This document shows positions 31,565 to 58,959 of a stretch of DNA of 64,000 bases, in pieces (positions within the stretch are counted from its first letter, which is position 1; every line of letters begins with the position of its first letter). Location of the stretch: NCBI GenBank assembly GCA_002245135.1, contig NGBS01000871.1:372001-436000 (forward strand), written 5' to 3'. The stretch comes from Proteromonas lacertae. Lineage: Eukaryota. The position numbers were made by a program, and so were the translations under genes. A model generated the notes under the pieces. That model searched no databases. It saw nothing but the letters and a program-made list of their open reading frames with translations, and had not been told where the DNA came from.

Positions 31565-34500
31565 TTATAATGCAGTTTCTTCTTCAGAACTATCATCATC
31601 TTCACTATCTTCTTCTTCTTCAGAACTTTCTTCTTTCTTTGCTTTTCTCTTCTTTTCAGTCTTTACATATGTTTCTTTTTTATTATTATCATCATCATCA
31701 TCACTTTTCTTTATTTCTACATTCTTTTCATCTTTCATTTCATCTCCACCTACTAAATTATTATAATTATCACCTGTTTTACCTATTCTAACTCCTTTAC
31801 CTTTAGCTGCTACTGGTTTTGAAGGTCTTCTCATCACAACTGAATGATTTCTTAAGAAGAATATAATTATCACAGCAATTATCAAAAATCCAAATATTCC
31901 ACCAAATACTCCTCCAACTATTGCTCCTGTATTACTAGAGCTTTTTACTTTTTCAATTGTCGTGGGTTTATCAAAACTAACTGAACTGCTTTGGAATGAA
32001 GTTGTATATTCTGATCCTTTTAATCCTGTTCTTATTTTTAATTGAATTGAGGAGGAAGATATATCAGATGAAATACTTGATGGATTATTTGTTTCTATAT
32101 ACACATCTAATATTACTGTTCTTGATTGTAATAATCTTAAACGAGATGTATGTTGTTCAACAATTACACTATTTACTTCTATATTTAATGATTCAGCTAC
32201 ACTTATTTGAACTGCTAGCTTCATCATATTATTTAGAGAACCTATTACACTAGATATTGTAATGGTGATTTTTACATATTCTTTATTTACATCAGGTATA
32301 AACACATCACTACTTCTACATTGACTAGTATCAATATTACCCCAATGACCAGATACACCACTTGCATCAGATTCACATAATCTTATCATCATTCCATATC
32401 CTTCATCACAAAGCGCTTGAGCATATTTATTTATATCTGTGGAAGGCCATCTACCATCAGCTGGACATTTTGGAAGGGTTATTGAGAATGTAAGTATTAC
32501 TGGAGTGGATGATCCTAAACTACTTGATCCTGTTACTCTACACACTGAACTCATTGCTTTGGATGCTTTTCCTGTAAATGTTCCTGTGGTTGTACTGAAA
32601 TCAATTCCTTCTAAAGTAGGTAAACAACTATAACTCCATGATGTTATTGGACCATTTACTATATTTTGAGGTGAAATTATTCCAATATCTTCATTATAAG
32701 TGAATGAATATGAGGATTTAGGATAAGTGAAAGATGGTAACTTTGGTGTACAAGTTCCACTTTCTTGTCCCCATACTGGATCTTTACCTTCACCACATAT
32801 TCTTGTTTTACTACCCTCATATCCTGTAGGACAATCCATTTTTACTGTTTCTCCTGCATTGGTTGCTGGCCAGGATATTGAACTTGATATTGTAGCTGGA
32901 CATTTAGGTTGAATCACTTCGATTGTAATTGTTGTTGTTACTGAAGTACCAGATACAGCTGCAGATACTACATATGATTTTGATGATTCAGCTGTTCCTT
33001 TAGTTGCTCTACCATATATTTTTCCTGAATCAGAGGTTATACTCAATCCTGATGGTAATGATGGATTAATTGAATAAGATTTTACTACACCATTAGCTAT
33101 TGGAGGATCATATTTACTCTCTTCTATGTCAACATAAAATCTCATTGTTGTTTCTGGATATGTTATTGTAGTTGCATAATTCTCAGTTATAGTTATTCCT
33201 ATTGTAGCTGTGTAAGTTTTATCATCATTACCAGTTCCTGATACTGTATAAGTTCTTCTTGCTTGCTCAGATGCACCAGATCCACTTATTGTTCCTGTCT
33301 TTGGATCAAATTGGAAATTGGGCGGTAATGATGGATTTATACTTAAATCTCCTTTAATTTCAGTTAATATTGGTTGGATTGGTATTATAGCAGTATTCTT
33401 CAATTGAATGATTTCTTTTGTACGATATTCAATTGATGGATTTATCTTTACACAATTATCTATGATGCTTTGCCAAGCAGGATTTCCAAATCTATCATAA
33501 CCACAATATCTTTGTTTTTGACCTGTATAACCAGCATCACAATTCAATGTTGATAATGTTCCAGGATTTGTATCTGGGAATCCATCAGCTGCTTCACATA
33601 CTTTTGGTTTTTCTTTACATGTTGATATTTCTTCACTCCAAGATGGATTTATATCATTTGTACAAGTTCGACTTTTAGATCCTGTTTGACCTTCTGGACA
33701 ATCTACTGTAACAGTTACACCTGCATTAGTTGTGGGATAATCTGAATCAATACTTTGACATTTGGGTTGAACTAATTGGATTGTTATTTCATTACTTTCA
33801 ACAGCTACTGAGTTTTGTAAACCTTGAACTCGATATTTTTCTGTACCTTCACTTTGACCAGCTAATGGAGTTCCTGATATTATTCCACTTGTCACATCTA
33901 ATACTATACCTGGTGGAAGTGGCGGAACTGTATAAGTCAATATTATTGAACCTACTAAAGTTGGAGCAGATGTTTGATTCATAAATCCAATATTGAATAT
34001 ATATGATGATGGATTATATTTTATTGATGAAACTGTATTTTTCACTTTTATATTTAATGTTGTTGTTACTTGTAATTTCTGTTGCATTACTGTTACTGTT
34101 ATTTCCATACCTGCTTCTGCTGTTGCAGCTGTTGTTGTACCAGATATAACACCAGTATTTGTACTTATTGCTAATCCAGTTGGTAATGCTGTACTATATA
34201 TTAAGATAATCTCAGCACCAACTAAATTGGGAGTAATAAACACAGGATCATTCAAATTGAATGTATATTCAGCTGGAGAATACTCAATTGTTGCAGGTAA
34301 TAATATACAAGTTGATCTATCAGGGAATGACCAAACTGGTGCTCCACTTGATCCATCACAATATCTGCTTTGCTTACCTTCATATCCAACACCACAATCT
34401 TTTGTTGCATATGTTCCAGCTATTGTATCTTCAAATAAACCATCATTTAAACATTTCATTTCTTTTGCATATATTGTCACTTGAGTTATAAATGATGTAT

Positions 34501-37500
34501 CTCCTGTATATGCTGTTACTTGACAATTTGTTGCAATATCAGATTCTTCTGTTGCTAAACCTAATATTCTACCATATCTTGGATTGAATATTATACCATT
34601 TGGAAGAATACAATCTATTGAATAACTATCAATCCCACCATTTATTGTTGGAGTATAATTGCCATATGCTTGAGTATAGAAAGTCAAAATATTATTCATT
34701 CCATAAGTTAATGATGTTGCTTTTGTTGCTGAACAATGATTTTCTTCATTAAGGAATGCAGCACTATTAGTATTAGGTATTTTGTAACATAATCTTTCTT
34801 TATAACCATATTGTCCAGTTGGACATTTTACAAATGCTCTTTGGTTTGCTACTGTTTCTTTATATTCACCATCTGCTGAACATATTGCTGGTTTACATAT
34901 TTGAATATGCATTTCTGCAAGTCTTATATAATATTCATTATATTTCACTTTCATAGATAATACTTGAATTTTGTAAGCTTCAAATGATCTAATATTATTC
35001 TCCATTTCAAATATGAAATCTCTTCCTGCTGTAGTAGCAGTTATAACAGGAGTAAATTGTTTTATTTTCAACCATTCTGGATTATCTCTATTAAATGCAC
35101 CATATACTATTATATCATTTATCAAATACCAATCATATAAATAAAGACCATTTGGGTTTCTTAATAATAGAGTATTAAAGAATTCAGCAGTTCCAACTGG
35201 CCATTTGAATATTATTTCTCCTGGAAAATTGTAGTCGTGTAATATATCAGTACTATAATATGTTCCAGAACTCCAATCATAACCTAGCTCTAATGGATTA
35301 TAATAATTTGATGGAAATGTAGTTGATGCATCCATTGTTGGTTTAGATGAAGAAGATATCGTTCTTATCGAACAATCACCTTCTGAATCAGCAGCTAATA
35401 ATGGAGTTAATAAAACAGTTAATGGATCTTCATTTAATGATTTGGAATGTTTATGAACTTCTATGGCAAAATAGTTTGTTCCAGTTTGTAATAAATGTTT
35501 TCCTATTGTTATACTCATTAATCTTGGTGGACTGAATAATTCATTTGATGTAAGAGTTGTTGTAACACCAGTCATTGGTAAGTTTCTTCTATAGAATTCA
35601 TTTCCATTTAAATAACAAATTATACCAGCATCAAATCTCAATGATAATTGCAATTGAGCAACTGTTGATATTGAACTTGAATATTCAAATTTTGTTCTAT
35701 AATATGTTGTTACTGCAGTTCTTGAAGGATATACACTTCCTGATATTGTTTGCCAATTAAATGCGTTTGGAAGATATTCATTATACCAGCCACTTGATGG
35801 TTGAATACTTGACACTTGCCATTCAGATTTCTTATCTATCAATGTATTTAATGATATTAATTTTGGTAATGTAGGTTTATCATATTCTAATTTTAATGAC
35901 ATTAAATTAATCCCTTCAACTAATACTGTTACAGAAGTACCATCACTCCAATGTCTGCTACTTGTACTTCCTAAAGTAAACATATAAGCACCACTATCTT
36001 CACAGAATGAATATGTTCTTTCAGTATTATCGTTTAGAATAGCTAAATCTAATAAATTAACATCTGAAGTTTGTTGCTTGAATTGAATTATTTTATCACT
36101 GGCTGATGTTCCTGCTTTTACTGTTACTCCAATTAACATTTTAGCACAAGCTGTTGCTGATAAGGTTAATGGATATGGTGTTCCTTTCTCACCTTTATTA
36201 TTAATTGGAGTTATTGATAATGTTAATGGATTACTTGAAAGTGTTCCTTTTATCACACCTGTTGTTGTATCAAATGATAATGTTTCTGGTAATTCACCTG
36301 AACTGATTTCAAAACTTGTAGCTGGAGTGGTTAATGTTGGATAGAATGAATAATATATTCCAGCGATTAATGGAGTTGGTTGGGAATAACTAAATATTGT
36401 TGATGATCCACTAACTGCCGATACTGTAAATGGATAATTTACAGTATCGCTTCCATCTTTCCATTCACCCATTCTTAACAATTCACCTTCAATATAAACA
36501 CTATATGTTCCTCCTGATTTAGCTGCACTGGTTATTGTTAATGTAGCTATACCAGTTGGCAAACACTTTGATTCTTTTCCTGTTGCGTAATCATTATATG
36601 AGCCTGATGCAATATTAACGAATGAAGCAGAAGCTGAATCAACTATAGTAATACCAACTTGTTTATTTCCTAATTCAAATGAAAAACTAACATACACTTT
36701 TCCATCTGCACATCCACCTATAGTAATCTGTACATCAACTTCTATTGAACCAGATGGATTACTACATTTTACTTTAATTGTACCTTCAAATGAATGACTT
36801 GGTATTCCTGTTATTGCACCTGTCATGGCATTCAGTTCTAAACCAACGGGTAATTTATCTTTTGTTGAATACCTCACATTTTCACCAGATCCTAATGTTG
36901 GAGTATTATCTTTCATTATTACACCAACAGTTCCAGTTATTGGAGTGTATGTTAAATTCATTGGTGGACTATAAGGATTTACTACTATTGATAATGCATA
37001 ACTTAATGTTGATCCATCTGTATGTGTTGTTGTTACTGTATATAATGATGTTAATGCTGCTTTCTTTGGAGTACCAGATATTACACCAGATTTAGTATTA
37101 AGATTTATACCTTTTGGTAATGGTGGTTCTACATAGAAACTAGTATAAGAATCTTTTGATACTTGGAAGAATACTGGAGAATTATCAGCTATTTTCACAT
37201 TCACTGTATAAGTTGCAACACTGTATTCATATGAAAATGAGGAACTTTCTATATGATATAAATTAGCTACAGGCAATTCTGTTTTGGGAATTATTTTACT
37301 TCCATATAGTTTTTCCCATTGAATACTAATAGCAGTCATAGCATTCAATTCAGTTTTCCAAAAATTTACTTGAATTGGATTTAAACCAGCTTCTAATCTA
37401 ACTACACCTATTCCACTACTGAATGCACAACTTTGTAATGGAGTTATGATATTACCATTTATATCGAATCTAACACCATCCATTCCACTCACTGTAAAGG

Positions 37501-40500
37501 TATAACTTCCTTCTTCTGGAACATCTAAATAACCAACCCATTTAGCTGCAAATTGAAGAGAAAATTCACCTGATAATCCTGTCCAAATCTCAGTTGATGC
37601 TGCATGATAATAAGTTGGAATTGTTCTTTGATATTTCAACGAAAAACCACCTGAATCAACATCAATATAATTACATCCTAAATAATTACTGTATGTATAA
37701 TAACTTCCAGTTAAGCCACTTAACAAATTATCTTTTGATAAATTCACTATGGTTATATAAATTGATGTTTCAATTGTTGTTGTATAACTTTCACATTTGA
37801 ATGTGTATTTTGTTCTTTTAGAAGCTGTTGTTGGTGTTCCTGTTATTATAGCATTATCAAACACTAAACCATCTGGTAATGTATCTTTAGATATAAATTG
37901 AATGAAATTACCTTGAACATCTGGTACAATTCTTCCTATATCAACACCAATTATAAATACATAATCATTTGATGGATATGAATATACTGTAAGTAATTCT
38001 GGTGTATGAAACAATACAGAATCTGGAACATATTCAAAATCTGTAGCACCTGGTAGTTTCCATTGTAACATCATTATATGATCATTAATTCCTTGGTAAT
38101 AATATAAACCAAATGGATGAGTTCCAGCTGACAATTGCTTTGTAAACGTTACAATTTCATTCCAGACATTATTTTTAGATACAATTGTGTCAAATGTATC
38201 AAAAAATATAGCAGCTCTATCATCACCTCTAAGTTTAAATTCATAACTTCCAGTTACATTCAATACAATATATCCTTTCCATTGAGCACAATAATATTTT
38301 GATCTTTTTACACTTGAACCAAATGTACATTCATCTTGTTTTACATTCCAGTTTGATAAATCTGTTGGACTATCAGCCCACTCATATTCGATTGTTCCAT
38401 CATCTAAACCTCTCCATATTGCAAATATATCTGATGGAGGATCTCCATACACTTCTTTTGTATATTTACCAAATAATTTAGGAGTTAATATAACATTAAA
38501 CACATTTATCTTTACATTGAATGTAATACTATTTACTGGATTGGAGGCTGTAATCTTTGTTGTGTAGTTGTGGACTGTGTTTGGAATACCTTTTATTATA
38601 CCATCTTTAGATATTGTTAAACCATCTGGTAAAGATGAAGCTGTGAAATTTTGAACTTCAAAATTACAAGTTGGAGCAGATAGACTTATTTGAGTATCTT
38701 TAACTACATTTATATCACCAACAAAAACATATGAGCATTTTGTTAATTTTCCCCAAACTGTTATATGAATTTCAACATTAAAATAACCTCCTGTTGCAGA
38801 TTTGAACTTGACTGTATAAATATTCTTTCTTAAAGGAGAAGTTGGACTTCCAGTTATAGCACCAGTTTGTTCATTAAATGTTAATCCAGTTGGTAAACCT
38901 GAATCAATTTCAGCTGCAATTGAAGCAGCTCCACTACTACTACATGTAGGAGTCATTGTTGTTGTTACATCAGTATATAAACCCAATACATATTCTGATT
39001 GAGGATATGAACAATCTGGAGCGTCACCTAAATCACAATTAGATAAATCCCATGCATCCCAAGATGGTGGATTTGTAGCCAAACAGACTCTAGTCTTTGT
39101 ACCACTATAACCTTTATCACATTTTGTAGTTAACATCTCATTAACTGGCGTTTCTGGGAATGTATCAAATGCTGGACAAGATGGTAATGCTGTTTCTAAT
39201 TCTATTGATGCTGTTATACTTCCAATTCCTTCATATGTATCACCTATAATTTGATATGTTTTACTTGGATTAATTGTGTCAGAGATAAATCCTGAAATAA
39301 TGCCTGTTGTTGAATCTATTGATAAATCACTAGGTAGTGAAGGATTTGTTCTAAAATTAATTATTGTTCCTTTCATTGTTGGTATTATTGGAGTAATAAA
39401 TTGATTTACTTTTAAAAGAGCAACTTCTGGATATGTCAAAGATGGTTGAACAGAATTACATCCACTTAAATCAATAGCTCCCCAAGTTCCATCATCATTA
39501 CACGTTCTTCTCATAATTCCTGCAACTCCATTTGTACAAATAGCCATTGCTGTTGAACCTGATTTGGTAGTTGGGAATGGATTACTTGCAGGACATAACA
39601 ATACACTACAAACAGCTGGATAGAAATCAGAGAATGACATTCGATAGTCTCTTACACAACGTTGTGTGTAAGTATATTTCACTCTTTCATTATGAAATTT
39701 AATATATTGAAATGCCATTTTAGGTGCATTTAAAGCTTCAAATTTTACAGAAACTTGTCTACCAGTCCAAGCATATTCTGCAGTCTCTGCACCAGGCAAT
39801 GCATTATCATTATCAACTCTATCTATTTCAACCCAAACATCGCTTGAAGTTCCTGTATATGTGTTTGTGCCATATATTGTCCATGCAGCTGGATCACGAT
39901 TTACACAATCATTAGCTGTTACAATAAAATATGTATTAAAATATATAGCTTTTGTTAATTTTAAAACAAGATCTGCAACTCCTCCATTAGTGGTTCTTAA
40001 ACCTTTTGTATTTTTATTTACATCAAAATAATAAGCGGAACATTCTGGACATGTATAATCTGTAGCTGTTGGCGCTGTTGAATCATATATAAGTTCAACA
40101 TCTGCATTATTTGATACTGTCCCACTATACATTGTTTCACATCCTGAACCTGAATTACCAATCATTGCCATTCTTACTTGGAATGGATCAGATGCTGCTG
40201 TTGTAGTAGGTGCTTTATGAGTTTCAAATGCTATATAATTTTCACTGTTTGCAATTAATAATGAAGTAACAGCTACAATATTAAAATCTTTACCACCTTC
40301 TGTTCCACTTGTAGCTTGTGTTTGGTCAGTTACTGCTCCTTCTGGCATGTTGATTCTATAAAATTCTACACCATTTATATATCCAATTAAACCACCATCA
40401 CTTCTTACTTTTATTGAGAAACTAGAATATTCTTCTAAACTAGCCATTGTGATTGTAGTTCTATAATACATTGATATACTTGATCTTTGAAAACTACCTG

Positions 40501-43500
40501 GTTTGGCTTTTGACCATCCTTTTTGACCAATTGCATTCCAATTTTGAGCAAATGTGTCACTATATTCCCAATCATGAGCTGTTGGTATTTCAATTGATAA
40601 TACTGCTGTATATAAAGCTTCATCTCCACCTTTGAATGATAAAGTAGACATAAGCTCATCACGATTTTGAACTATTACATAACTATTTGAATCCCAAGCT
40701 ACTCTATCAGTACTACCATAATATATTGAATATGAACCTTTCAGTATACATTCTGAATAAGTGGTTCTTGAATATGGTTTTACTCCTTTGACTGAATATG
40801 TTTCATTACCAAAACTATCAACTACTCTTAATGACATTTCTCCTGAACTTAATCCTCCATTAATTGTTATTCTAAATAACACATGATTCTCTGCACATCC
40901 TACTGTATGAGTGTAAATAATTGTAACTGGAGAACTTAAGACTTGACCATTTTTAGCTGTTATTGAAATTGTACCACTTGCTTTATCAACTTCACCAACT
41001 GTTCCATATATCAATCCAGTTGTACTATTCAAAGATAAACCAGGTGGAAGTTCAGTTGCTGAAAATTCTGTTACTGCATTTGATAATATCTCTGGATATA
41101 ATTCATAATATTCACCTGTTACTATTGATATACTTCCACTTCCATATGCAATTTTTGGAATTCCATCAACATTTTTAAGATTCAATGTAATTATTGTCAT
41201 TTGAGTATTTGACCATTTTCCATATTTTAACATTTTCTTTCCTTCTTGACTAATGATATATGTTCCTACCCTTCCTTGTCTTTGTGTAAATGTCACTGTT
41301 ATAGTTTCAGTTGGAATACATTTTGAAAAACTGTAGTAAGTGTCATCTTGATGATTATCTTGAGAATATATTCTACTAGAAAAAGCATCAGTTATTAAAA
41401 CTGTAAAATCTCTTCCATAACCAGTAATATAAGCAAATTGTAAAAAATAAGAACCTTCATTACAACGACTAATTGTTATTGTCACACTTCCATCCTTACT
41501 ACCTAATGCATTTGTCGCTGTTACTTTAATCACTCGATTTGTTACTGATTCTGTTGGTTTTCCAGATATTACACCAGTAATGGAATTAATTGATAAACCA
41601 CTTGGTAATTCACCTTCACTGATTTGAACAGTATAATAATTACCATCTATTACTGGAGTTATTTCTAAATATGTATCTAATGCACCTGTTACTATTGGAG
41701 GGTTGAATGTAACTGATGTAATTTCTTGATATGATTTGTAGGATAATGTCATTCTACTTTGTAATTTCACATTTTGAGATGCTTCTGCTATTATGGTAAA
41801 GAATGTCGGTTCTAATGATTCTTCATCTGCTGTTATAGTTCCAGAAATACATCCTTTAGTTGCTGCATCTTCACTAATTATTAATCCAGCAGGTAATTCA
41901 GGAGAAGATGAAAACTTCACAAATACACTTGTATCACTCATTCCTTGATAAATTGGACAGTTTTGTGGTATTGCAACATTCTTTATATATTCGGCAGTTT
42001 CATAATTGTAACTGAATGAATATCTTGGCATACGTAAGAAATAAGCATCAGGAATTGGCGTATTTGCAATTCCAGCAGTTGTACATTCCCATTGAAGCTG
42101 AATACTCTTTAAGGCGTTTCCAGTTGATTTCCAATAGGTTATTTCTATATCATTAAAACCAGTGACTAAATTAACAGTTCCTGTAACATAAAACATGCCA
42201 TTGTTACCACAACCAGATGTTTGAATTACTATTTTATTACCTATTTTGATTCTAATACCACCGTATGTTGTTGATGTTATTGTATAACTGCCACTAACAT
42301 CAGCTTTTAATACACCAGTCCAAACAACAGTAAATTGATTAATAAAATCACCACTTAAGCCTTCCCATGCTGCTGCACTAAATCCTTTAGGTAATACTTT
42401 ATCAAATCTTCTAAACTTCAAAGTATCATAAAATGAAGAGATTTCACGATAATCACATTCTCTCTCTGGTGATGAATAATACAAACCATCTAAACCAGCA
42501 GCCATATTAGCTGCTGAATTTTCTAATACTTGAATAGTAATAAAATTTGTTATTGTATAAGATGAATCCCAATTCTTCATTGAGAGTGCATATGGTTGAG
42601 CAACAGCTATCTCAGTTGGTTTTCCACTTATCTTACCCCAATTATCCATTCCTAAACCTTTTGGTAAATCAGGAACTGATGATAATTCATTCATTAAACC
42701 TGTTACAACTGGTGTTAGAGTTTGTTCCTCACCTTTAATCATTAACATATCTAAAGTTCTCCATTCAACATATTGTAATGGCGGAGGCATGGCTTTTGCA
42801 CCATTTGCAGTTGACATTACTGAGACTTCACTTTCTCCAGCTCTTTTCCATTTTACATAAAATGTACCTGAATTCTCCAAATTCTTTCCTATAAAGCTAA
42901 TGAAATGAGTTCCTCTAGACAATGTTTCTGTTGAGGTAAGCTTTTCATTCCAAATAGTACCATATTTCCATACTCTATTCATATTATCAAGATATACCCA
43001 TGCTCTATCATCTATATTTATCTCAAAATATATTTCTTCTGTTTCTTCAGTTACTTCAAAAGCTACAGTAAAAAAATAATGCAATTGCGCTGTCTTTAGG
43101 TTTGGTCCACATTGAATAGTATTTCCTCCACATTCATATTGAGCTGTATTTAGCTTCATTGAGTAAAAAACAACTTCTCCATTTAATATACTATTCACAA
43201 TGTCTTGTTTTATATCATCTCCTCTATCTGAAGTTTCTATAAAAGACAGAGGAAGCATTGAAGGAAATTCAGCAAATCCAACTGTTTTCAAGTTTAAAAC
43301 AATGCTAGTACCAGATAAACTTATAACCATATTATAAGTCGTTGCTACACCAGTAGCTACTCCAGATATTAAACCACTTGATGGATTTAATGAATAACCA
43401 GGAGGTAAAGTTGACGTGGTTGTGAATGTTCCAACGACTTTTTGTTCACATTTAGGTGGTTGAATGATGTAAAACTGACCTAAAGGAACTGGAATGAATG

Positions 43501-43614
43501 ATGTAGTGCCATAACTACAGATCTGATACTGTGCATGGCAAGATAATAGTGCTAAGATTGATATAATTTAAGAATTATACATATAACAATAAGCAAAACA
43601 GACTTACAGATCAT
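31565..43614 (-). CDS. ~4000-aa type I cell-surface protein: signal peptide, many He_PIG (putative Ig) repeats, four PA14-like domains, galactose-binding/discoidin-like domains, Cys-rich sushi/hormone-receptor-like modules, TM helix, basic then acidic tail; intron 43552-43580
   Basis: Spliced N-terminus MICKSVLLIVISLLSCHA-QYQ; repeated LPxGLxxxxxTGxISGTP; PA14-type WxGYxxxxxxGSYxF; CPxGYxGxxxRxCxxxxxPxW modules; TM AIVGGVFGGIFGFLIIAVIIIFFL. Confidence 0.88.
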
Positions 43615-45827: not shown

Positions 45828-48800
45828 TTAGTTATCTGACTTGTCATTTTCTTTCAATTCTTCATTAGGAGTTCCATCGTTACTATTAAACTCCAGCGAC
45901 TTTACATCAGCTTCAGTGTCATTCTTTTCTATCCAAGTCTCAAATAAGGGATCTTGATGATTAATCTCTTTTTCAGGATCTGCTTCAGATAAAAGGTACA
46001 AAATAATTTCTTTCATATTCTCTAAATCAGAAGGTTGTGTATTTTCATCTTTTGATTTTTCTAAGTATATATCTTCTGCAAATTGAATGGCATTTCCTCC
46101 TGTTAGTTGATATGTCATATGTAAAAATCGTTTCTATTCATATATTATCATAAAAAAAATAAATAATACTGCTCCAGCTTCCATAATCATCTTAATACAT
46201 TCTAAATTCTCACCTTTAACAGCATAATACAACACATTATATTTATCATAATTCAAAGCACAAGAATCAGCTTTATTTCTCAACAATACTTCCACTACTT
46301 CTGAATATCCCTTCAAACAACTGATCATCAAAGGACTCATGTCAGAAGTCTTACAGAATTGATTTGGTTGAATTCCTTTCACTTCTAACAGTGAATCTAT
46401 TATTTCAGGCTTGTTTAATTTACAGGCTATATAGAGTAAACTGCCTTCAAAATCCATTCCCTATTTGAAATATATAAAATAATATATATAACAATATACA
46501 TGATAAACTCCAACTCCAGATATATTTGGATCTGGCATTGCTTGTGCCAATTTCATTATAATTTCGTTACTATAATTCTTATACAAAGCAATATGAGCTG
46601 GTGGTGGTGAACAAGATGGTGTATATAAAATACAATTATTATCAATAAAACTCCAACCTAAATATTCATCATTCAATAAAGCAAAATGTAAAGGTGAAAA
46701 ATTAAAAATATTATCAGTTTCTGTGTCTTTTTCTTGACAAATTGCATTTACATTTGCTCCAGCTTTGATTAATGAAGTAATCATCTTATATGCAAGTGTA
46801 GGTGATGTAATATAACAAGCATTGTGTAAAACTGTTTTTCCACCATCCAACACACTTTTTACACCATCATTAGTTAAACCTAATAAATATTCACATAATT
46901 TATATTTTCCCAACCATCGCTTATTCTCATCATCACATTTTACACACCACTGTGGCATGTTTTCATCTTTGTATCTATCTGGTAGTGGTATTCTTCCTAT
47001 TACTAAATGAAGAGGTAATATTCCACTGGATGTGATATAAGTGGATAGTTTTGAATCTGATAATGGTTGTAATATGATTTCTCTTGGAGATCTCAAATTC
47101 TATATATAATATACTATAATATATATATTATACTCTATATTTATATTCAAATATTTCAGCTATTTCATGTTCTTTCTTTTCCTCTTGAGTTAATCCCAAA
47201 TTAGAATTATCATAAACAGGAGTAAATACTCCTCTCTTTTCACCATTCTTTACTAATATCTTTACAATATCAACAATATCATTCTCATCACCAGTTTTAC
47301 CTACAATTCTTCCAAAACAAGCACAATGAATGGGTAAATAATGATCAACATCTTGAATATTCACATCTGCACCATAATCTAATAACAATTTAATAACAGG
47401 AACATGTCCTAGACTTAACGCATAATGTAAAGGTGTACAACCGTATTTATCCACTTTATTTATCTTAGCACCACAATCAATCAATTCTTTTACTGTATCT
47501 GTTAGTATTGTTGGTGGATTATTTGATTCTTTACCTTCTGTATTGATTATACCATTACTTATCCATTTTAATCTTGTATTGAGTGTAACTCCTTTTATTA
47601 GCATATGAAGTGGGAATAATCCATCAGAATCAGCTACATTTGGATCAGCACCAGCTTTTAATAATGTTAATACCATTCTTGAATTACCAGTAATGGATGG
47701 AATATTACTATCTTCAACACCTTCAAAATGTTTGATTTGTAAATCTTCTACGGATTGATTATCTGGAGAAACAATGGAGAATTTGATCAACGGATCTCCA
47801 CTAACAGTTACACTATTAACATCAGCTTTACCTTCATTGATTAATATATCAACAATATTATCATAACCTAACGATAAAGCAGTCATTAATGGACTAACAC
47901 CAGTTTTATCACTAATTGAAACATTACCATGATTTTGTATCAATAACTTCACTAATTCTTCATTTCCTAAGTTTACAGCACAATGTAATGGAGTAGATTC
48001 TGGAATATTCCATACTTCATATTCTTTCACTTTATTTAAAACAATTGTCCAATCATCTTCCATTGGGCCAAATACACCAGCTGGGAATGATGGTTTTTGT
48101 AATGAAGATGGTGATATTAATGAACCATCTAAATTGTCTTTACCTTTTTGACTGGTTTGCCTTGCTGTTGCTGGTTTTGAATTCCTTTTTTGTTTTTTAT
48201 TCCCTGTATCAGCAGGTTCTGCTTCTACTTGTTTCAATGTCTCTGGTGGATTTGCTTTTAGTTCTGTTTTATGTACACCTCTTGTGATTAAATATATTGC
48301 ATTTCTTTTAACTCTTTCTAAAAATCCATCAACATCGTCTATTTGAATATTTGCATATTTCAAAGGTCTATAATCTAATATGGATATGAAATAATTCAAT
48401 ATTCCATCATCTAATATTTTGTATGTAATATTATCTTTCATATACAATAATAATGCATCTTCTTTATCATCACATACACAAAGTGGTTCAAATAAATTCA
48501 ATGCTTTTATTAAATAGTCAATCTTATTACAAGGATTCTTAAATAATCTTGTAATTACATTTAATACATTAGACATTGTATTTCCTTGTACTGTACTCAA
48601 TTCAACCAATTGTTTTGCATAATTTTCATTCAATTCATCACATTGTCTTTGATACTCAGCATCAATCTGAGCTTTTTCTTCCTCAGTATATTTCTTAGGA
48701 TAAACCAATTCAGGTTTATTTTCTATTGTTGGTACTTCCACAGCTTGATGATTCAAATTATACATCACGAACAATATTCCATCAGGTAATAAAATCATCT

Positions 48801-51800
48801 CTTTTAAAGTATCAATTGCATATAATATACCTTTCTCATTATCATCATTAATTGGTAATAAAGCTACTGTAGTTAAATAAGGAATATGTTTTAATAAAGT
48901 TCTAGAGGAAAGTAAAGATGGTGGTTCTTGTGTCAATGTTGGATCAACTTGAGAAGCTTTCTTTCCTTTTGCATTTTCATTTTCTGGGATTGGATTTTCT
49001 AATGGTTCTTCGATATATTCATTTCCACCTTTTGATAGATTATTAATCAATTCCATTGATAGTGTAAATAGTGGACAATGTTCAATGAAATTTACAGCAC
49101 TGGTAGTTTGAATTTCATATTTCCACTCAGGTGAGATATTTTTCATCCACTGGATAATTACATCAACTAATGGATATGGTGTAACGGATGCATTTGTAAT
49201 TACTGAAGAATCTTTTCCACCTGCACCTTTTTTCACTTCTTTTTTTGGTGCTTTTGGCTTTTCTTTTTTTGGCTTTGGTTTTTTCGCACCACCTCCTTTT
49301 CCTTGATTTGCTACTATCAAATCATCAATTTCTGTATCTGATTCATAATCTGTTTCAACGTAATCATCAATATTGTATGGAGATATTAAACCATTTCTGA
49401 AGTAGAAATGTGCTTTAGGTGAAAAACAAATGAGATAATTTAACTATAAATTATATATATATATAATTAATATACTGTTTTTATAATTGAAATGTAAATA
49501 TTATAATGTAATGGTGTTAATGGTTCTAGTGGATTCTCTAGTGTAACATTTGATTCAGATTGCTCCATTTCTTTACATTCTTCTCTTTCTATTCCTTCAT
49601 TTACTTTAACTTCTTCATTTAATCCATTATCATCTTTTTTCTCCTCTCCTTCAGTTGATTGTTTTGATTCTTCTACTACTAGTGGTGGTTCTATTTTTGT
49701 TTCTTCACTGTAATTTTGATTATTATTATTATTAATCTCTTCATTTTCTTTATTTATTTCATCTTCAATTGGATATACAGGTAATAATACTTGTAATAAA
49801 ACAGGAATAATATCAGCAGAGATTATAACAGAGGCATTATCTTCATTCTTTATTATTAAATACACAAATCTACAAATTCTACACTTCATATCCAAATCAG
49901 TTTGCTCACTTTCCAGTAAACTTCTTATTAAGTTTACATTTAAATATGGAATTTCCTCACCTTTTAAAATTGTTTGAATTTCTTCATCTGTTGATGGTTT
50001 TACAATTGTATGAATTTTTACTTTTTCTTTTTCACATTCTTCATTTTCTTTACTCTCTTCTCCTTCATTATCTTTCTTTTCTTCTTCTTCTTCTTCTTGT
50101 AATGGCTTTTCTGTTGATTCTACTGTAATATTTTCATTCATTTTACTTTCTTCTTCTATTCCATAACCATCATCATCATCAATCTTTCCTTCTTCATAAC
50201 CATATTCTTCTTCTTTTCTTTCTTCTTTTTCTGCTTCTCTATTCTCATTATTATTCAATAACATTTCTTCTTCTTTTTCATATTTACATAATAAAGTTAA
50301 CAACACTTCAATCTTATTTCTAATCTCAAAATCATTATCTTTCAATTGTCTTAATAATACCTTCAACATTCTCGCATCTTTTGCTATATCTCTTACCCAC
50401 TTTCTTGGCTTGAATAATTCAATTAATCCATCTAAAACTCTATGAAATAATACACTACAATGTTTTGAATTTATATTTTCAATTAAGCGGTTAATTTCAC
50501 GTAATAATCTAAATACTATTTTCTTTAATTTATCATTTTCACTTTCTGGAACTTCTTCTTCTACTTTTCCTTTCTTTTCTTTCTTCTCTACTTTTTCAGA
50601 CTCTTTAGTTTCATTTTCTTTACTTTCTTCTTCATTTGGGTTTGGATTGTTTGAATTATCAACTAATTCATTTGGTAATACAGTACAGAGTGTACTACAA
50701 GTTGTATTAACTGCCCAATAACTCCATTCTAATAGAATATTAAAATTGAATATTTCTTTTGGAATTCCAAGGCTTGCTGCTGATTCAAACTCTTCATCAT
50801 TATTACTCTTTAAATCATCTTTTAGACTTTTCTTTGATGCATTCTTTGATTTTTGTGATTTCAACGTATCTGTGGATTCTTTTTTGTTCATTTTCTTACC
50901 TCCTCCATCTTCTTCTGAATAGATAATATTGCCATTATCATCACGAGGCAAGTCCATAATTGGTATTTGTTCAATAAAAGATAGTCTAGATCGTCTAATT
51001 GCAGCAACATAAATGTCAAACACGTTTGAAATTTGTGGATGAGATTCTTTATACTGGCAAATACCATCCAGTAGATATAATGCAATTCTATTCTCATCAC
51101 TTACTTCTTCTGGATTTGGGTAAAATTTTGATAGGTAATTGGAACACTCAGGATTACTATACATAATCTCAAACACTTTGGGAGTATATTCTAATAATTG
51201 GGTATTTTGAGTATTTTTTTCAGTTGGAGTTAAATAGTATAACGTGTGTAATGCATTACTTCTCACTTCTTGATTTTCATTTCCTAAGTGAGTTGTCAAT
51301 GAATAAACTGGATCTATTATTTGTATAGAATATAATCAATATATATACCACTTTTTATAAATATATTCTCAGTATATTTTGCTCTTTTCTCATCTTCTTC
51401 TGGTGGTAATTTATACACAGACTGCATAACAAATTTAATGCATCTTACAGCAGCAACTTGAACTGCAGGATCTTCATCATTCAAAAAGGCTGAAAACCTT
51501 TCACATCCTTCCCATTTTGTAGTAGATTTCTCACCTTCTGTCATAACTTCTAAAGCTAATTTTAAAGGCTCTGGATGAAGGGATAACAGCTCTGCAAACT
51601 TCAAAATTACTGATTTAATAATTTCTGGTTTCTAATAATATAATACTTTTGGATATACATTATTTGGTCTTAAATTATTCAAAAGAGTAGGTACACTATT
51701 ATCAGTATTGATAAAATCTAGATTGACTTTTTTAATTGCATCGGTTAAAATATCTGGCTTTGTAGATCTCAAGCATTTGCCTAATTCTTTAAGTTGCTCC

Positions 51801-51835
51801 TTAGATGATACCACTGTCTTTGATTTATTAGGCAT
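45828..51835 (-). CDS. Large (~1900 aa) multi-exon protein: ARM/HEAT-like helical N-terminal region with Glu-rich inserts and C-terminal ankyrin repeats
   Basis: Seven consecutive ORF fragments separated by short GT-AG introns. Ankyrin motifs TPLHCAVNLGNEELVKLLIQNHGNV, GCTPLHYALSLGHVPVIKLLLDYGADVN and MSPLMISCLKGYSEVVEVLL. Confidence 0.8.
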
Positions 51836-51934
51836 TATTTAAAGAATTAATAAAAAATAACGATTAGAAACTCCTATATTTTTGAAATTGTATTGGTGTG
51901 TATTTTTCTTTTTCTTTTTTATTCGTCTAAATAT

Positions 51935-52645
51935 ATGGATAATAAGTCTTCAAAAACATTAGAACAGATATATTCTTACAAATTTTTATATTTTTATATT
52001 CCTATTGTATTTTTACAGCTATGACTCATTAGTTTATTGCCTGGATTATAGGCTTTGGATTTAGTATGTACGCACGTGCATGGGAGTTTTATATAATTTT
52101 AACAATTATAGCATTTGTATTGAACAATCTGTTTTTATACTTTAGTTAATATATGCATTAATATACAGAGATTGCTTTCATCCACATTATCAAGTTCCTC
52201 TGTTTGCTTATATGCGAGTATATATTTTTGCATTTTAATTCTACGTTTAGAGTGAAGAAGAAAGTGGATCTATGGTAGATATACTTGACAATACATTTGA
52301 TACTCCTACACCTACACCTAGGCCTGATGAAGCAAATCACAATAAAAGAAATCAATTTAGTGAGAGAACTGACGAACTTGTAGTTAATAAGTCACCATCT
52401 AGCACTACATCAGAAGATTTATATAATGAGATGATTAAAAAGTATATTCACTCTTTCTATACAAATATTAGAAACAGCCATTTAATAGCTACTAAAAGAT
52501 TGAATAATAGAAAGTTTTCTATTCATGGTGAACAATTAAAACGTATTAAAGATATTGCTTTATTGTATGATTAGAAGAATTACAAAGAGATAATCAAGAT
52601 TGCCCTTGTGGATCTGGTTTGAAATACAAAGATTGCTGTAAATAG
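51935..52645 (+). CDS. Small membrane protein with a C-terminal SEC-C (SecA-type zinc-binding) motif; 6 exons
   Basis: Introns 52007-52032, ~52131-52168, ~52218-52250, 52442-52471 and 52543-52574 give MDNKSSK...FIAWIIGFGFSMYARAWEFYIILTIIAFVLNNL...RDNQDCPCGSGLKYKDCCK*. Confidence 0.75.
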
Positions 52646-52832
52646 ATATAGTTTAATCAATTTAACGATTGTTTTTAATTTAAAACATTTTTCTCTTTTT
52701 TAATTAAAAAATACCCAGTTAAAATAATATATTCGTTTTGAAAACCAACGAGGCTTAAATTGTATTTAGACACGAACAATGTTGAAACACATGAAACGAC
52801 TATATTTAAAAAGTGAGTCAACACAACGATAT

Positions 52833-54309
52833 ATGGACAGATATTACTTTTTTCTTCTATTTTTGGTGATAGTTGGTGTGAATTGTGATGGTTCTGGAGT
52901 TTCTTTGACAATTGATATCAGTATGTTTACAGAAGACATAGCCAAAGATGTGTTGCTTTTAGATTATGGTGTAGCTGATAAGGAAATCATCAGATTAGCA
53001 GGAGCTGTAGCAATTCCAGATAACATGACATTTGCTAGTTTTTCATGGTGGACTGATGAAGCAGAAGATTATACAGAAAAATATGAGTTCATAATATCTC
53101 CAGTAGATCCAACACTTCTGATGGGATATTTAGACATTCCAATGAGTGGATATGTTCCAAAACAACAACAAAAGTATAAATATGTTTTTATTGATAATAA
53201 TGAATAGATGGATGTTTAATATGAGATGTTTAAATAAAGTTGGTGAATCTCAAAAAGTAGAAATTGCTTTACAGTTGAGATTATGGACTCATGATGGAGT
53301 AAGAGAATATAGTGGAGTAAATGTGAAACCATCCAAAATATGTAATCATATTGATTATCCTGCTTGTACAATATATCCCAAAACAAAATTAAGTACAAGA
53401 AAAACCTTGACAATAACCACAATCGATATGTTTGGTGAAACAAATGAAGCCAATGATATTGAAAGAATCAAAGATGTATATTATTCATTACAAGATACAA
53501 ATACAATAATCTCAATTCAAAATGCTCCAAAACATCTACAAGAATTATTTATTCTAAACACATTTAATAGTTATAAATATCACATTGCAATGCCAAGAAG
53601 TGATGAAAACTCAAAAGATGATAATGGCTTATTAATATTAAGTAAATATCCAATAACAATTTGTAATTATATAAATCTGGGAGTAGATGAAGAATATAAT
53701 CGAATTTATGGAGCAGTGATAAGTGGAATAGATATAGGAAGTAATCGAATAGTATTTTTAATCAACAGTATATTGCCAAATGATGAAAGTAGTTATATAG
53801 CTAGTTTAAATGATTATTTAATAAAGATTGAAAATGAAGTGAGTAAAACAATAAAAGAATTTAAAAAGAATAATGAAGAATATAATATAATGACAATCTA
53901 CAGTGGAGATTTAGGTCAAGACAGTGGAACAATGGATGAACAAACTGATGCTTATTTAAGTTTATTAGAATTATTAAAAGCAAATGATTTATACAATACA
54001 AGTGGTGATAATCGATTAATAACTGATCATTTAAAACATATTCGAAGTGAATTTTTATTGAGAAGTAATAATGAAGAATTCTTTAATAATGAAATTCAAA
54101 TTCGAAGTATTTCAACATTGAATATAAGTAGTTCAATTAGTGTAGACTATAATGAAGAAGAATTTTTATTAGCAACTCCAAACAGTGGTTTAAGTGTGAC
54201 TTTTGAATTTTGGCCAATTGGAACTAATAATGATGAAAGTAATATTTATATGGAATTTGGATTGAAGAATATGATATTGTTATTGTTGATGGTGTTATTG
54301 TATTTATAA
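52833..54309 (+). CDS. Secreted, probably GPI-anchored protein: WIF-like domain + degenerate endonuclease/exonuclease/phosphatase (sphingomyelinase-like) domain; intron 53174-53207
   Basis: Signal peptide MDRYYFFLLFLVIVGVNC; WIF-like VSLTID...AIPDNMTFASFSW...KYEF...LDIPMSGYVP...MRCLNK...SKIC; EEP-like DNGLLILSKYPI and IYSGDLG; hydrophobic C-terminus MILLLLMVLLYL*. Confidence 0.75.
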
Positions 54310-54650
54310 GATTAATTATAAAGTAAATGATTATATTGCACATTGTTTGTTTGTATATATTCTTCGATATTCTCTAATAACTACTTCAAATATAAACAAT
54401 TTGTAAAAGATTTGCACAGTTTGTATCATTTATTGTAAATATTTGTATACACATATTATTTGATTTAATTATTCATTTTGTATAACTATACAATGAATTG
54501 TTCTTAACAATTTGAATAATGAAAGAAAAAATAGTATTACCACAATATCAGTTATTTATCTTCTTACACCATCCTAACTCAAGTATAACTATAAAAGTGT
54601 TTATGCCATAATTAATTAAATAAATACACACACAAATATATATATAGTAT

Positions 54651-55353
54651 TTAATTAGTTTTAGTACAACTATAATGACTTATCTTACCATTTGGTTGTC
54701 TACTAAAAATCACATCTCTACCAATAGATTTACCACATATTGAACACTTAGTATTTTCATCAATCAAAAATGATGATCTTTTCTTCGAATTCAATAATAA
54801 TGAATATCTCAAATACTCCATTCTTTCTAATTGCAACACAATTTTACCTGTTCTTAACTGATGAATATGATGAGGTATAATTTTTATAAGGTAATTCAAA
54901 ATATCATTCGTTTCGTAATATTCAGGTAATGTAGAAAGCAAATAAATTGGATCAATTATAGTGAAATATTTATTAATAATATTGATGACTTCATCTTTAT
55001 TTTCTTTAGTATTTGATTCATATAGTATAGAGAGAAATATATTAAACGGTTCAGAATCATTTATATCACTAATACAATAAGTTTCGGCGAGTTTAAAATC
55101 GTGTAAGACATTGATATCATATTCTAAGGCTTTTTTATGTTCATGATGCTAATATAATATATATATATATATACTTTATAGTGTATCAATCCAATTTCAT
55201 AATACAATTTATGATTTTTCAATTGTTCAATTAAATGATTTGAATTATAACAATTACAAACATGTATGAAATTGATTAATTTACTTCTAATTGTACCAAC
55301 TTCACCACTTTCTTTACCAGGAATAAGATTATGATTATCTATTGAAATAATAA

Positions 55354-55401
<48 letters not shown>

Positions 55402-57619
55402 CATAATTCTATATTATTCTTTTGAGCAGATTCTGTTAATTGTTTTGCATAAATATCACCTAATTCATTGGATAGTACTTCATCACTGTATCTTTGTTGG
55501 ACTAATAAATACTCCAAATACTTATATAATATATCATTCTTTATAAATTCATTCAAAATGTTGTTTATTATTGATAATATTGTGTTGATATATGTATCTG
55601 AGAGTGGAATATCTGGATTTGTATATATCTAAATAATAATAATAATAATAATATATACTGATAATGTTTCATTTGGATTTTTTTCCAATACCCAAGGGCT
55701 ATAATCAATAATTAACTTGGTATTTTTACAATTCTTTAAATAAGTAATTGTATCATTTATTCCATTATAGTCTTTTTGAATATACTCTCCTGTACCAAGT
55801 TTTTTCCATATATTTAATGCATCTTCACTTTTACCAATTGTACAGTAATAATGGCCTAACTCATTATAACACTATTAAATTAAAATTATTAAAAGTTAAT
55901 ATATATATATATATATATACTTGATTATCCAACAAGTATTCAATCACATCATTCGGTTGGCAATACAATTTCTTTGATAATAACGAATAAAGTTGTTTAG
56001 GATATATCATATGAGTGACTTTAACATATACCAAATCAATAATTGGAGCTAAATCAACTATCTTTATATACTTTTCTCTATTTTGTTCAATCATATTATG
56101 AAACCCAATATAACTATCATTTAATATTTCTTTTATTTTTGGATGATTTGGTGGATATGAATCTATAGATTGTCCTGTTCTTTGTGCACATTTTGTTCTT
56201 GCTATTGTGATTATATCATTCGTTTTTCCTGGAACTAATTCTTTCTTTATATGAATAGGATTATAATCGTATAATTTGTTGTATAAATTAGGATAATAAT
56301 ATAATATTTCTTTTGGATCTATACTGGATTGTGTAAAGTGATTAAATGCTTCTTTTATATTCACTGAATAGAATAATGATAAACCTGCATTCATGTGAAA
56401 TTGAGGTAATTTTGTTGGCTAAATATATTAAAAATAAATAAAATAAATGTGAAAAATATACTGCATCTGCTGGTGTTAATACCAATTGTAATAATTCATA
56501 AGCTTCACTGATATTTCCTCTTCTTAATAACATTTCAATTTGAGCATCAACTGGTAATGGTTGGAATATCATAATTCCGCCACCTGGAGCTGAGAGAAGT
56601 ATATATTTCCTATTTGAATTCTTTATATCACTATATGTCATAATTCCATCACTTAATATACAATCTGTAGGTACAGTAAACTATAAAATGAATAAATAAT
56701 ATTTTATACAGTTTGTACCAATGTTTGATCAACAGCTGAATGTAATATAACAGAAGTTGAACATAAACTGAAAATATAGGGGTTACAATAACTCATTTGT
56801 AACGGATAGTCTCTATTAAATACAATAGTGTTCTTTGGAGCAGGAAATCCTTCATTATTCATATATACACATGTACTAGAGCTAATGCTAAATATAGTCT
56901 CATCTTCACTAATAGTTTTTACACACAATGGTTGTTTACTATCTAAATAAGCGTCAATCATTTGAGGTTTGCTTTGCATCATTGTATTGATCATCCAATA
57001 ATTGTGTTTGTTTATATAAAACAATGTATTTCCTGACCATACTATTTGATTGGGTGATGTTATTGTATCTGCTATACTATGCTCTTGTGTCTGTTGGAAT
57101 AAGTTTCTTGTATAATCTAATAATACTAACTTCTTTTTTATTGCTAAACAAAGTCTTGGAGTTGGTGAATCTTTCATATTATAAGCAAAAGCGGTTACAT
57201 TCTTATATTTTAATCCCAAAAATGTTTCTCTGTTTGTCTCCATACTCCATGTTTGAGGAACACCATCACATATTGTCAAATAAGAGTTTACTGCAGTCAT
57301 TACACAAATATGAGAGACTGGTTTCTTTGAAGATATTGAAAATATAACTGGCTCTTTACTAGTATATTTTGCCTAAACTAATGAATAATAAACTTATACT
57401 GATTCACTAAATGTAGGTGGAACACTCTGTATAATTCTAAAAATGCATAAATGACCTTTTTCACATCCAACATAAACATCAAATGTCATATCATCAACAG
57501 CTATTGAGAATATAGTGTGATTAAGTAATACCATTATAAGCAAAGCATGTAATTCTACCAGGAATTGATTTATAATCAATAAGCTGTTCTAATTTAAACG
57601 CTTCTCGAGTGCTTTCCAT
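54651..57619 (-). CDS. Vps39/TGFBRAP1 (Vam6/Vps3)-family HOPS/CORVET subunit: CNH domain, helical repeats, C-terminal zinc-finger-like domain; multi-exon
   Basis: N-terminus MESTREAFKLEQLIDYKSIPGRITCFAYN; LCLAIKKKLVLL; PLPVDAQIEMLL; FTQSSIDPKEILYYYP; C-terminal IDENTKCSICGKSIG...SRQPNGKISHYSC. Vps39 and TGFBRAP1 cannot be told apart by eye. Confidence 0.85.
55356..55398. repeat. (TA)n microsatellite inside a 64-nt intron (55339-55402, minus strand)
   Basis: Direct inspection. A similar run lies at ~21908-21942 inside a plus-strand intron. Confidence 0.9.
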
Positions 57620-57697
57620 AGATTTTGAGAAAGATCGGATAACTGAACATCAAAAAGCTTTGAATTATCATCATTTTTTCAAAGTTATATTTTTCAT

Positions 57698-58843
57698 ATG
57701 ACTCAAGGAATGTTATTTGCTATGCCTCTCATAGTTATCAATATGGGAGGTGAAATGACCTATATTTTGGAACAACGTCTTCGAGCACAAAAGATATCAC
57801 CAGATAAGAGCACAAAAGGTATATTGTTGATATAATAATCACATGTAGTTCTTGCTGATGTTGTAAAAGCAATGTACAATGAAAAATTCATGAACGAATT
57901 GTTTAAACCACAAACTGTTTATTCCAATCACAGTACAAGACAAATATTCAGTAGATTAGCTCATTCATCAATAATGCGTTTAAATACTGCAAGTATGGAA
58001 AAATTGTACGATTTAATGACAATGGGTTTTAAATATCAGTTATTAACAATCCCTCATCCACGACATTTATTAGATGTGACAATCAACCACATGAACACCA
58101 TAATGAACATCATAAAAGGTGAAGCAAAAATCGTATCAGTGGTAGAAGCAAGCAAACAAAGATTCATCAAGTTGTACAATGATTTCACAGATGGAGATTT
58201 TTATATGTTAAAGCATGTATTATGCAGATTCTTCCAAGGAAGAAGAGTTAAAGTATCTCTATTCTTACAAGATCATATCCAAAATCTTGACGGTTCTATC
58301 ATATTAGACGCAAGTGGACAATTACCAAAAGGTACTGATGTTCCTGGAACAATTCGTCATTTTACTGCTGATGGTAAATCCAATGGAACTTCAACAATTC
58401 AAATTATCGATTCTGAAAAAGTTCAACCCTATAAGAACTTAACTACCACATTAGGAGGTAATTTATATTCTAAAGAAAGAAAACCAGCAGCAGCTGATAA
58501 ATCTAAAGGAGAAATGAAATTGAAAAAACCAACTGAACCTGTTGAAGAACCAACCATTATATCTGAATCAGGTAAAGCTGAAATGAATTTATTGGCTGAT
58601 CTGATTGGTACAAAAGATGCAGCTGGTGATAAAGTGCATATCGACTTATTCGCAGCTAAAGATCCCTATGGAACAAAAGGTGGAACTGATAGAACAGCTG
58701 ATATTATCTTAATTGATACAGCTGAAGGTAAAAAAGCTGCTTGTAAGGAGTTAGAAAAGTTATATGGTATGAATATCGAAGAAACTTACGATGAGAAGGT
58801 TGATGATGATGATTTATTGGCTTTGATGGATTCTGCGAAGTAA
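57698..58843 (+). CDS. OSCP1: OSCP1 (organic solute carrier partner 1) homologue; intron 57819-57848
   Basis: Spliced MPLIVINMGGEMTYILEQRLRAQKI...KFMNELFKPQ...LAHSSIMRLNTASMEKLYDLMTMGFKYQ, RVKVSLFLQDHIQNLDG, LGGNLY and C-terminal DDDLLALMD match OSCP1 family motifs. Confidence 0.92.
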
Positions 58844-58959
58844 AATATGTATAACTAATAAGATTATGCTTTTATTCATTTTACAGAAGATTTTTTGTTT
58901 GTTTTTACATAAAATGATGTAAAAAGTACCATTTTTATGTAATTACGTTTTTATTCAAA

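Follow-up and report, generated by a model that had tools for sequence, protein, structure and literature searches.

A WIF domain joined to an EEP-fold pseudoenzyme domain in a predicted GPI-anchored protein from a likely gut protist

The WIF domains that have been characterized to date belong to animal Wnt and Hedgehog signaling, and to our knowledge no WIF domain is otherwise found outside animals. A gene within a 64,000-nucleotide stretch of genomic DNA, hereafter the window, therefore raises the question of what such a domain might be doing in what is likely a gut protist, where it is fused to a dead enzyme domain of the sphingomyelinase type. The same gene also raises the question of whether the WIF domain was taken from a host or is older than animals, and what its partner could be in an organism that has no Wnt of its own. 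A first-pass annotation, entered at positions 53404 to 54309, had described a WIF domain fused to a catalytically dead sphingomyelinase/EEP-like domain with a GPI-like tail.

The reading frame at these positions does run to a TAA stop codon at 54309, but what it holds is just the C-terminal two thirds of the gene (Table 1). Likewise, the fusion of WIF and EEP domains is real, but the WIF domain lies outside the annotated region (approximately 52902 to 53346) and is split by a short predicted intron. We predict a gene of two exons, whose spliced product of 480 amino acids carries, in order, a signal peptide, the WIF domain, the EEP-fold domain and a GPI-type tail.

Table 1. Features of the WIF-EEP gene and its immediate neighbors, in window coordinates.
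Feature	Coordinates	Strand	Basis or remark
HEAT/Arm-acidic-ankyrin gene, long, spliced, flanking	47128-51838	-	
Exon 1, predicted	52833-53173	+	aa 1-113 plus two bases of codon 114
Signal peptide, predicted (aa 1-19; hydrophobic core ~aa 5-17)	52833-52889	+	Hydropathy
WIF domain (~aa 24-160; Cys121, Cys159)	52902-53346	+	Pfam match of exon 1 and alignment to P0004
Intron, predicted, 34 nt, phase 2, GTAT...ATAG, 15% GC, inside WIF domain	53174-53207	+	Frame-joining scan
Exon 2, predicted, ends at stop TAA	53208-54309	+	ORF
Linker with Cys167-Thr-x-Tyr	53347-53403	+	Family alignment
EEP-fold pseudoenzyme domain (aa 180-448)	53404-54210	+	Atlas, models, alignments
GPI attachment signal, predicted	54217-54306	+	Heuristic rule
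Vps39-like CNH + zinc-finger gene, flanking	54651-57588	-	
Oscp1, flanking	57647-58843	+	

The upstream part of the gene is an open reading frame that extends from an ATG at 52833 to a stop codon at 53207 and begins with a stretch resembling a signal peptide. In-frame ATG codons are also present at 52779 and 52791, and the start at 52833 is favored because the hydrophobic signal stretch comes directly after it, as is the case for P0004, an intron-free homolog of 451 amino acids. Among 14 frame-joining GT-AG pairs, a single one (53174 to 53207) passes a filter for AT-rich introns of the form GTA..YAG. Its signature is like that of the other candidate introns in the window, where a GT-AG frame-joining scan yields 49 candidates at approximately 25 places, most of which start with GTAT and end with TAG. 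This splice form also aligns best of six with P0004 (score of 149 versus 103 to 129) and is ungapped at the joint. From these sequence features we infer that the transcript is spliced at this site.

Evidence for the fusion comes from P0004, which, being free of introns, bears both domains in one frame (WIF at 27.4 bits, cut-off 25; PF03372 at an E value of 0.0037, which is below the cut-off for that model). P0004 is complete, with signal peptide, WIF domain, EEP domain and tail, and it aligns with the spliced window protein over amino acids 25 to 422 at 26.5% identity (E = 1.5e-38). Two other homologs, P0002 and P0003, begin within the last strands of the WIF domain and continue directly into the EEP domain. 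In total, the fusion is present in four of the five groups into which the homologs and the window protein fall, and the fifth (P0006) is represented by a C-terminal fragment. The WIF-EEP fusion is thus almost certainly genuine. We also considered an arrangement of two separate genes, which is ruled out by the fused P0004.

These homologs were recovered by a phmmer search with the EEP domain against 1.84 billion representative sequences, which gave six matches at E values up to 0.001, and by a profile search, limited to scoring the 7,993 best candidates, which added at least three further clusters, all belonging to the P0003/P0005 group. The family comprises at least nine clusters of 1 to 17 members each, all of them unnamed Logan proteins, and the five groups are 18 to 37% identical to one another; the window protein and P0001 share 68% identity. 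Most homologs are exon-sized fragments, and the ends of P0002, P0005 and P0047 to P0049, together with a stretch in P0003/P0036, are likely intron read-through and were left out of the conclusions on tails and on the RxDY motif. Word-index protein searches with exon 2 and P0004 as queries yielded no further relatives. Pattern scans of JGI metagenomes, GTDB genomes and IMG/VR did not find the locus and tblastn of plasmids gave no match, both being searches that reach close relatives only. The 64-kb window holds no paralog of the gene, and exact look-up of 11 window open reading frames in a protein collection found none of them present. Apparently, this is a small, divergent family with an undescribed architecture made of known parts.

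The two domains were identified by different routes. For the WIF domain of the window protein, exon 1 alone matches positions 34 to 91 of the Pfam model at an E value of 0.0019 and 18.4 bits, short of the 25-bit cut-off, and the 47 residues 3′ of the intron, when scanned alone, match no Pfam model. The P0004 cluster has six members, of which four were scanned, and all four exceed the cut-off for WIF (PF02019) at 27.4, 31.8, 25.6 and 30.6 bits, with matches that cover positions 20 to 131 of the 131-position model. The window and P0004 WIF domains align with a score of 111, compared with a mean of 27 and a maximum of 63 for 1,000 shuffles. In both proteins a Cys pair closes the C-terminal strands of the domain (Cys121/Cys159 in the window protein, Cys125/Cys160 in P0004), and we take a pair at similar spacing to be a feature of WIF domains. 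In a predicted structure of P0004, the WIF part is all-beta with pLDDT below 50 and matches only generic beta-sandwich structures at Z scores of ~6. PDB sequence searches gave chance matches only and no solved WIF chain, no solved WIF structure appears among the matches listed for the P0004 model, which are filled by its EEP domain, and ESM Atlas returned no usable match for P0004 residues 22 to 175. The WIF assignment therefore stands on the Pfam matches and the Cys pair, since PDB, Atlas and structure comparison gave no WIF match.

The EEP domain is better served by structure. Seven landmark motifs of the fold had been proposed from the sequence, and all seven do occur in one frame and in order, at 53407, 53506, 53620, 53758, 53899, 54043 and 54175. 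Pfam and NCBIfam scans of the window's own sequence give no EEP match. When the window sequence was searched against ESM Atlas, the first match scored 0.96 and PF03372 clusters account for 25 of the 30 matches. A single-sequence model of exon 2 (pLDDT of 45) matches EEP structures with a best Z score of 12.6 (rmsd of 3.6 over 187 aligned residues). The P0004 model, which was built from 13 sequences (mean pLDDT of 57.6, with most of the EEP part at 55 to 85), matches over the whole EEP domain with a best Z score of 20.6 (rmsd of 3.2 over 223 aligned residues). Residues 179 to 425 of this model match 38 EEP representatives at Z scores of 12.1 to 20.6, and the next fold follows at 6.4. Structure searches of both predicted models thus agree on the EEP fold, which is a four-layer alpha/beta sandwich of ~250 residues.

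The proposed sphingomyelinase character of this domain holds in part. Sphingomyelinases do come first among the structural matches of P0004, with human nSMase1 at a Z score of 20.6, nSMase2 at 20.4 and the Bacillus cereus enzyme at 19.9, and the highest identity in these matches is also to B. cereus sphingomyelinase (20 to 21%). However, TDP2 is effectively tied with them at 19.7, within 1 Z. PDB sequence searches with the EEP region gave no match beyond chance. These model-based comparisons favor an origin of the EEP domain in a neutral-sphingomyelinase-like enzyme, which falls short of settled because TDP2 ranks directly behind the sphingomyelinases.

Has this domain retained the residues needed for catalysis? 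The canonical EEP motifs are LQE, NTH, GDxN, RxDY and SDH. We placed them with the aid of Escherichia coli XthA and YbhP, using profile comparisons that are below significance (probability <1%) and serve for motif placement only. At the eight canonical positions the window protein carries D187, N219, I302, D348, G350, E395, P438 and N439, among which only D348 is the canonical residue and Asp187 and Glu395 are acidic substitutions. The metal-binding Glu of LQE is kept in none of the four groups that cover it, where it is replaced by Asn219 in the window protein and by Asn or Gly elsewhere. The His of NTH, which is Tyr in ExoIII/APE1, is kept in none of five groups and is Ile302 in the window protein. 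The Asp of SDH is kept in none of four groups and its His in two of four, and Pro438-Asn439 occupy these positions in the window protein. Retention is greater for GDxN, whose Asp is kept in three of five groups and whose Asn in two of five. Both residues occur together only in the P0003/P0005 group, and the window protein keeps Asp348 and has Gly350 for the Asn. The first Asn is kept in two of the four groups covered. The Asp of RxDY is found in one of four groups (P0006) and is Glu395 in the window protein, in a register that is uncertain because the XthA/YbhP alignment leaves this strand unplaced and the assignment follows motif order.

The claim that the catalytic residues have been replaced is therefore borne out, as evident by the retention of only one of eight in the window protein. 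The homologs appear to constitute a family of pseudoenzymes because no group retains the LQE Glu, the NTH His or the SDH Asp where its sequences cover these positions. Judged from these sequences, the EEP domain is very probably devoid of catalysis. That it might instead be an atypical but active phosphodiesterase or lipid-remodeling enzyme with a different catalytic set is highly improbable: the domain has been kept whole and P0006 retains three of the six canonical positions it covers, but neither the metal-binding Glu nor the SDH Asp survives in any covered group, and no common alternative set emerges because the replacements differ between groups.

The positions that have been conserved lie elsewhere. 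Twenty-five columns are invariant among the covering groups (at least four of five), located in the final strands of the WIF domain, the linker and the core strands of the EEP domain, and no catalytic position is among them; indeed, all eight canonical active-site positions vary among the five groups. The linker residues Cys167, Thr168 and Tyr170 are invariant in the four groups that cover the linker. Overall, the invariant columns include four Cys, Thr or Tyr positions of the linker and WIF end in addition to Cys266, and those in the EEP core include Cys266, Tyr268, Gly282, Gly287 and Arg294. The linker residue Cys167 may pair with Cys266 of the EEP domain as a disulfide. This pattern supports the view that a dead enzyme has been kept for its structure, and it offers no support for a headgroup site shared by the family. 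The earlier proposal that the dead domain retains lipid-headgroup binding is accordingly left unsupported.

The C-terminus of the protein bears on where it might act. Hydropathy of the spliced product peaks at the two ends only, with no internal transmembrane helix. The protein ends with 12 to 13 uncharged hydrophobic residues that extend to the TAA stop codon with nothing behind them. Candidate omega sites 25 to 29 residues from the end are followed by a polar spacer and then by this hydrophobic end, which lacks a cytosolic tail. By a rule that is a hand-made heuristic, the C-termini of the window protein and of all seven homologs examined consist of a small-residue site, then a spacer, then an uncharged tail of 12 to 23 residues, consistent with the GPI-like tail noted initially, although the omega site of the window protein fits less well than those of its homologs. 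GPI anchoring is thus probable on these sequence features. A type I membrane protein was considered as well, and is ruled out by the short tail without a cytosolic part.

Because the invariant residues sit in the WIF end, the linker and the EEP core strands, they suggest a rigid surface binding protein. The mechanism that we tentatively favor, giving it as a whole somewhat short of an even chance, is that of a surface binding protein, GPI-anchored and without catalysis, whose dead EEP domain presents the WIF domain. The EEP domain would adjoin the membrane as a rigid base, and the putative disulfide would tie it to the linker. The WIF domain would be held outward as the working end that captures an extracellular partner, and the protein would bind this partner rather than cut it. 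The likeliest partner would be a molecule that carries lipid or is bound to a membrane, from either the host gut or gut bacteria, and the protein would serve adhesion or capture. Within the six-member P0004 cluster, variable positions are more frequent in the WIF domain than in the EEP domain (18/140 versus 14/240; Fisher p = 0.02). This is a weak sign that the WIF domain may be the exposed tip, although in six close relatives the higher variation could instead reflect relaxed constraint.

A receptor for lipid or lipoprotein with two pockets, in which a phosphocholine-type headgroup would sit in the dead EEP domain and an acyl chain in the WIF domain, is the alternative that survives best, and we nevertheless consider it unlikely. 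It draws on the leading rank of sphingomyelinases in the structure searches, on the binding of DPPC in the WIF domain of human WIF-1 (PMC7458405; PMC6292148) and on the persistence of D187, D348 and E395 in the window protein, which lie near the old active site and could bind a cation or a headgroup. However, the tie with TDP2 weakens the first of these arguments, and the old active-site positions all vary among the five groups. Furthermore, the reported Drl-2/RYK-type WIF domain has no lipid pocket (a cavity of 77 cubic angstroms versus 1,510 in WIF-1; 10.1101/2021.04.29.442059), and therefore lipid binding by a WIF domain is not to be assumed.

Quite unlikely, in our judgment, is a variable surface coat or decoy that has no specific ligand, with the cell covered by paralogs that share a stable scaffold of two domains. 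Groups that are merely 18 to 37% identical, GPI-type tails and a more variable outer WIF domain are what such a coat would lead one to expect. Families of variant antigens, however, are unlike the WIF-EEP family, which looks small. There are at least nine clusters, six WIF proteins were counted in the related-looking genome of Proteromonas lacertae (PMC12129017), and no paralog lies within the window.

A trap for host morphogens, in which host Wnt (or Hedgehog) at the gut surface would be bound by the WIF domain, with a change in epithelial signaling, is very unlikely. The characterized WIF domains of WIF-1, RYK/Drl and Shifted are reported to act on Wnt or Hedgehog, and only a host could supply a Wnt partner, since the InterPro table for P. 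lacertae has no row for Wnt ligands (PMC12129017). However, the WIF domain described here is remote from those of animals, as evident by the lack of a match in PDB sequence searches, the EGF repeats that WIF-1 is reported to require for strong Wnt binding (PMC6292148) are absent from this protein, and the host and lineage are themselves presumed. The broader scenario in which a gut protist carries a family of WIF proteins built on a dead sphingomyelinase and uses them at the gut surface to capture Wnt or other lipidated morphogens of its host, with the WIF domain being either host-derived or pre-animal, is similarly doubtful. If the ligand does prove to be a host morphogen or lipid, then the protein would constitute a new route of contact between a gut eukaryote and the host epithelium. 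The sequences also describe an entire family of pseudoenzymes whose catalytic residues have been lost in different ways while the fold and the anchor have been kept.

The gene lies in eukaryotic DNA, and the window has 22 to 34% GC per 2-kb block, densely packed genes and short AT-rich introns. The source is presumably an AT-rich protist with flagella that resembles Proteromonas. An upstream neighbor at ~51935 to 52645 (plus strand) is apparently spliced and ends in a CPCGSG..KDCC cysteine motif, which is presumably SEC-C-like, and nothing in it points to a connection with the WIF gene. Elsewhere the window contains a PA28 gene, an Hsp70-like protein of 507 amino acids (16669 to 18192, plus strand) without the last ~115 positions of the Pfam HSP70 model, a Jacalin-like lectin domain inside a protein that looks like a coiled coil (22789 to 24093, plus strand) and a spliced four-domain voltage-gated cation channel with four Ion_trans stretches (24816 to 30176, plus strand). 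An uninterrupted open reading frame of 4,000 codons on the minus strand (31565 to 43567) encodes a giant surface protein with nine He_PIG Ig domains, three PA14 domains and an HRM match, and ends with an apparent transmembrane helix and an acidic tail. The sequence TGTTTGTT, which we take to be a Blastocystis element, occurs on the plus strand at 54344 to 54351 and at 58896 to 58903, 34 nucleotides after the WIF-EEP stop codon and 52 nucleotides after that of Oscp1. It follows two of the nine stop codons examined and shows no enrichment in the window (6 matches versus 6.8 expected), so we rejected it as evidence of lineage.

Published counts of protein families provide a further perspective. 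Supplemental Table S5 of one comparative study, which is based on InterProScan, gives P. lacertae six WIF proteins, whereas Cafeteria and eight Blastocystis have none (PMC12129017). It also lists seven SMPD2-like proteins in P. lacertae, one in Cafeteria and none or one in Blastocystis, and it includes GPI transamidase subunits for P. lacertae. According to the same source, Oscp1 is present in P. lacertae and absent from the eight Blastocystis, and the window also carries Oscp1. The term 'wnt' appears in the table once, for Wntless in Cafeteria. Frizzled cysteine-rich-domain superfamily proteins number three in P. lacertae and one to three in each Blastocystis, and sphingomyelin-synthase-like proteins number 13 to 14 in P. 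lacertae, representing other modules of lipid- or Wnt-binding type in gut stramenopiles. The table gives counts and no architectures; its six WIF proteins may be members of the WIF-EEP family. The main text of that study does not mention WIF. Loss of WIF has been reported in Myxosporea (PMC6343361). Our search of the literature on WIF/PF02019 in protists, non-metazoans, Blastocystis and choanoflagellates found no account of a WIF-EEP architecture or of WIF in protists, consistent with the initial impression that this architecture is unknown from described proteins; the original Proteromonas genome paper and 30 of the 33 supplements of PMC5608401 lay outside this search and could mention WIF.

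Several known systems resemble the WIF-EEP protein in part. The neutral sphingomyelinases (SMPD2, 8j2f; nSMase2, 5uvg; B. cereus, 2ddt) are alike in whole-domain fold and in motif order, and share with it a glycine-rich core strand before SKxPI. In contrast to these enzymes, to which it is 13 to 21% identical, the WIF-EEP protein is without the catalytic Glu, His and Asp and adds an N-terminal WIF domain and a predicted GPI anchor at the outer surface. Cimex nitrophorin (1ntf) and Pseudomonas Crc (4jg3) are repurposed EEP-fold proteins with non-hydrolytic roles, and match the P0004 model at Z scores of 13.6 and 14.2, respectively. However, both are soluble, single-domain proteins that have neither a WIF domain nor a GPI tail. 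The secreted proteins WIF-1 and Shifted likewise carry, after a signal peptide, an N-terminal WIF domain that closes with a Cys pair, but there the WIF domain is followed by EGF repeats, whereas here their place is taken by the dead EEP domain with its GPI-type tail, in an organism that is likely not an animal. RYK/Derailed offers a parallel in that a WIF domain at the cell surface is joined to a catalytically dead enzyme domain. In RYK/Derailed, however, the dead enzyme is an intracellular pseudokinase, whereas the EEP domain of the WIF-EEP protein would be extracellular, and direct signaling is not expected of the latter because it has no transmembrane helix with a cytosolic part.
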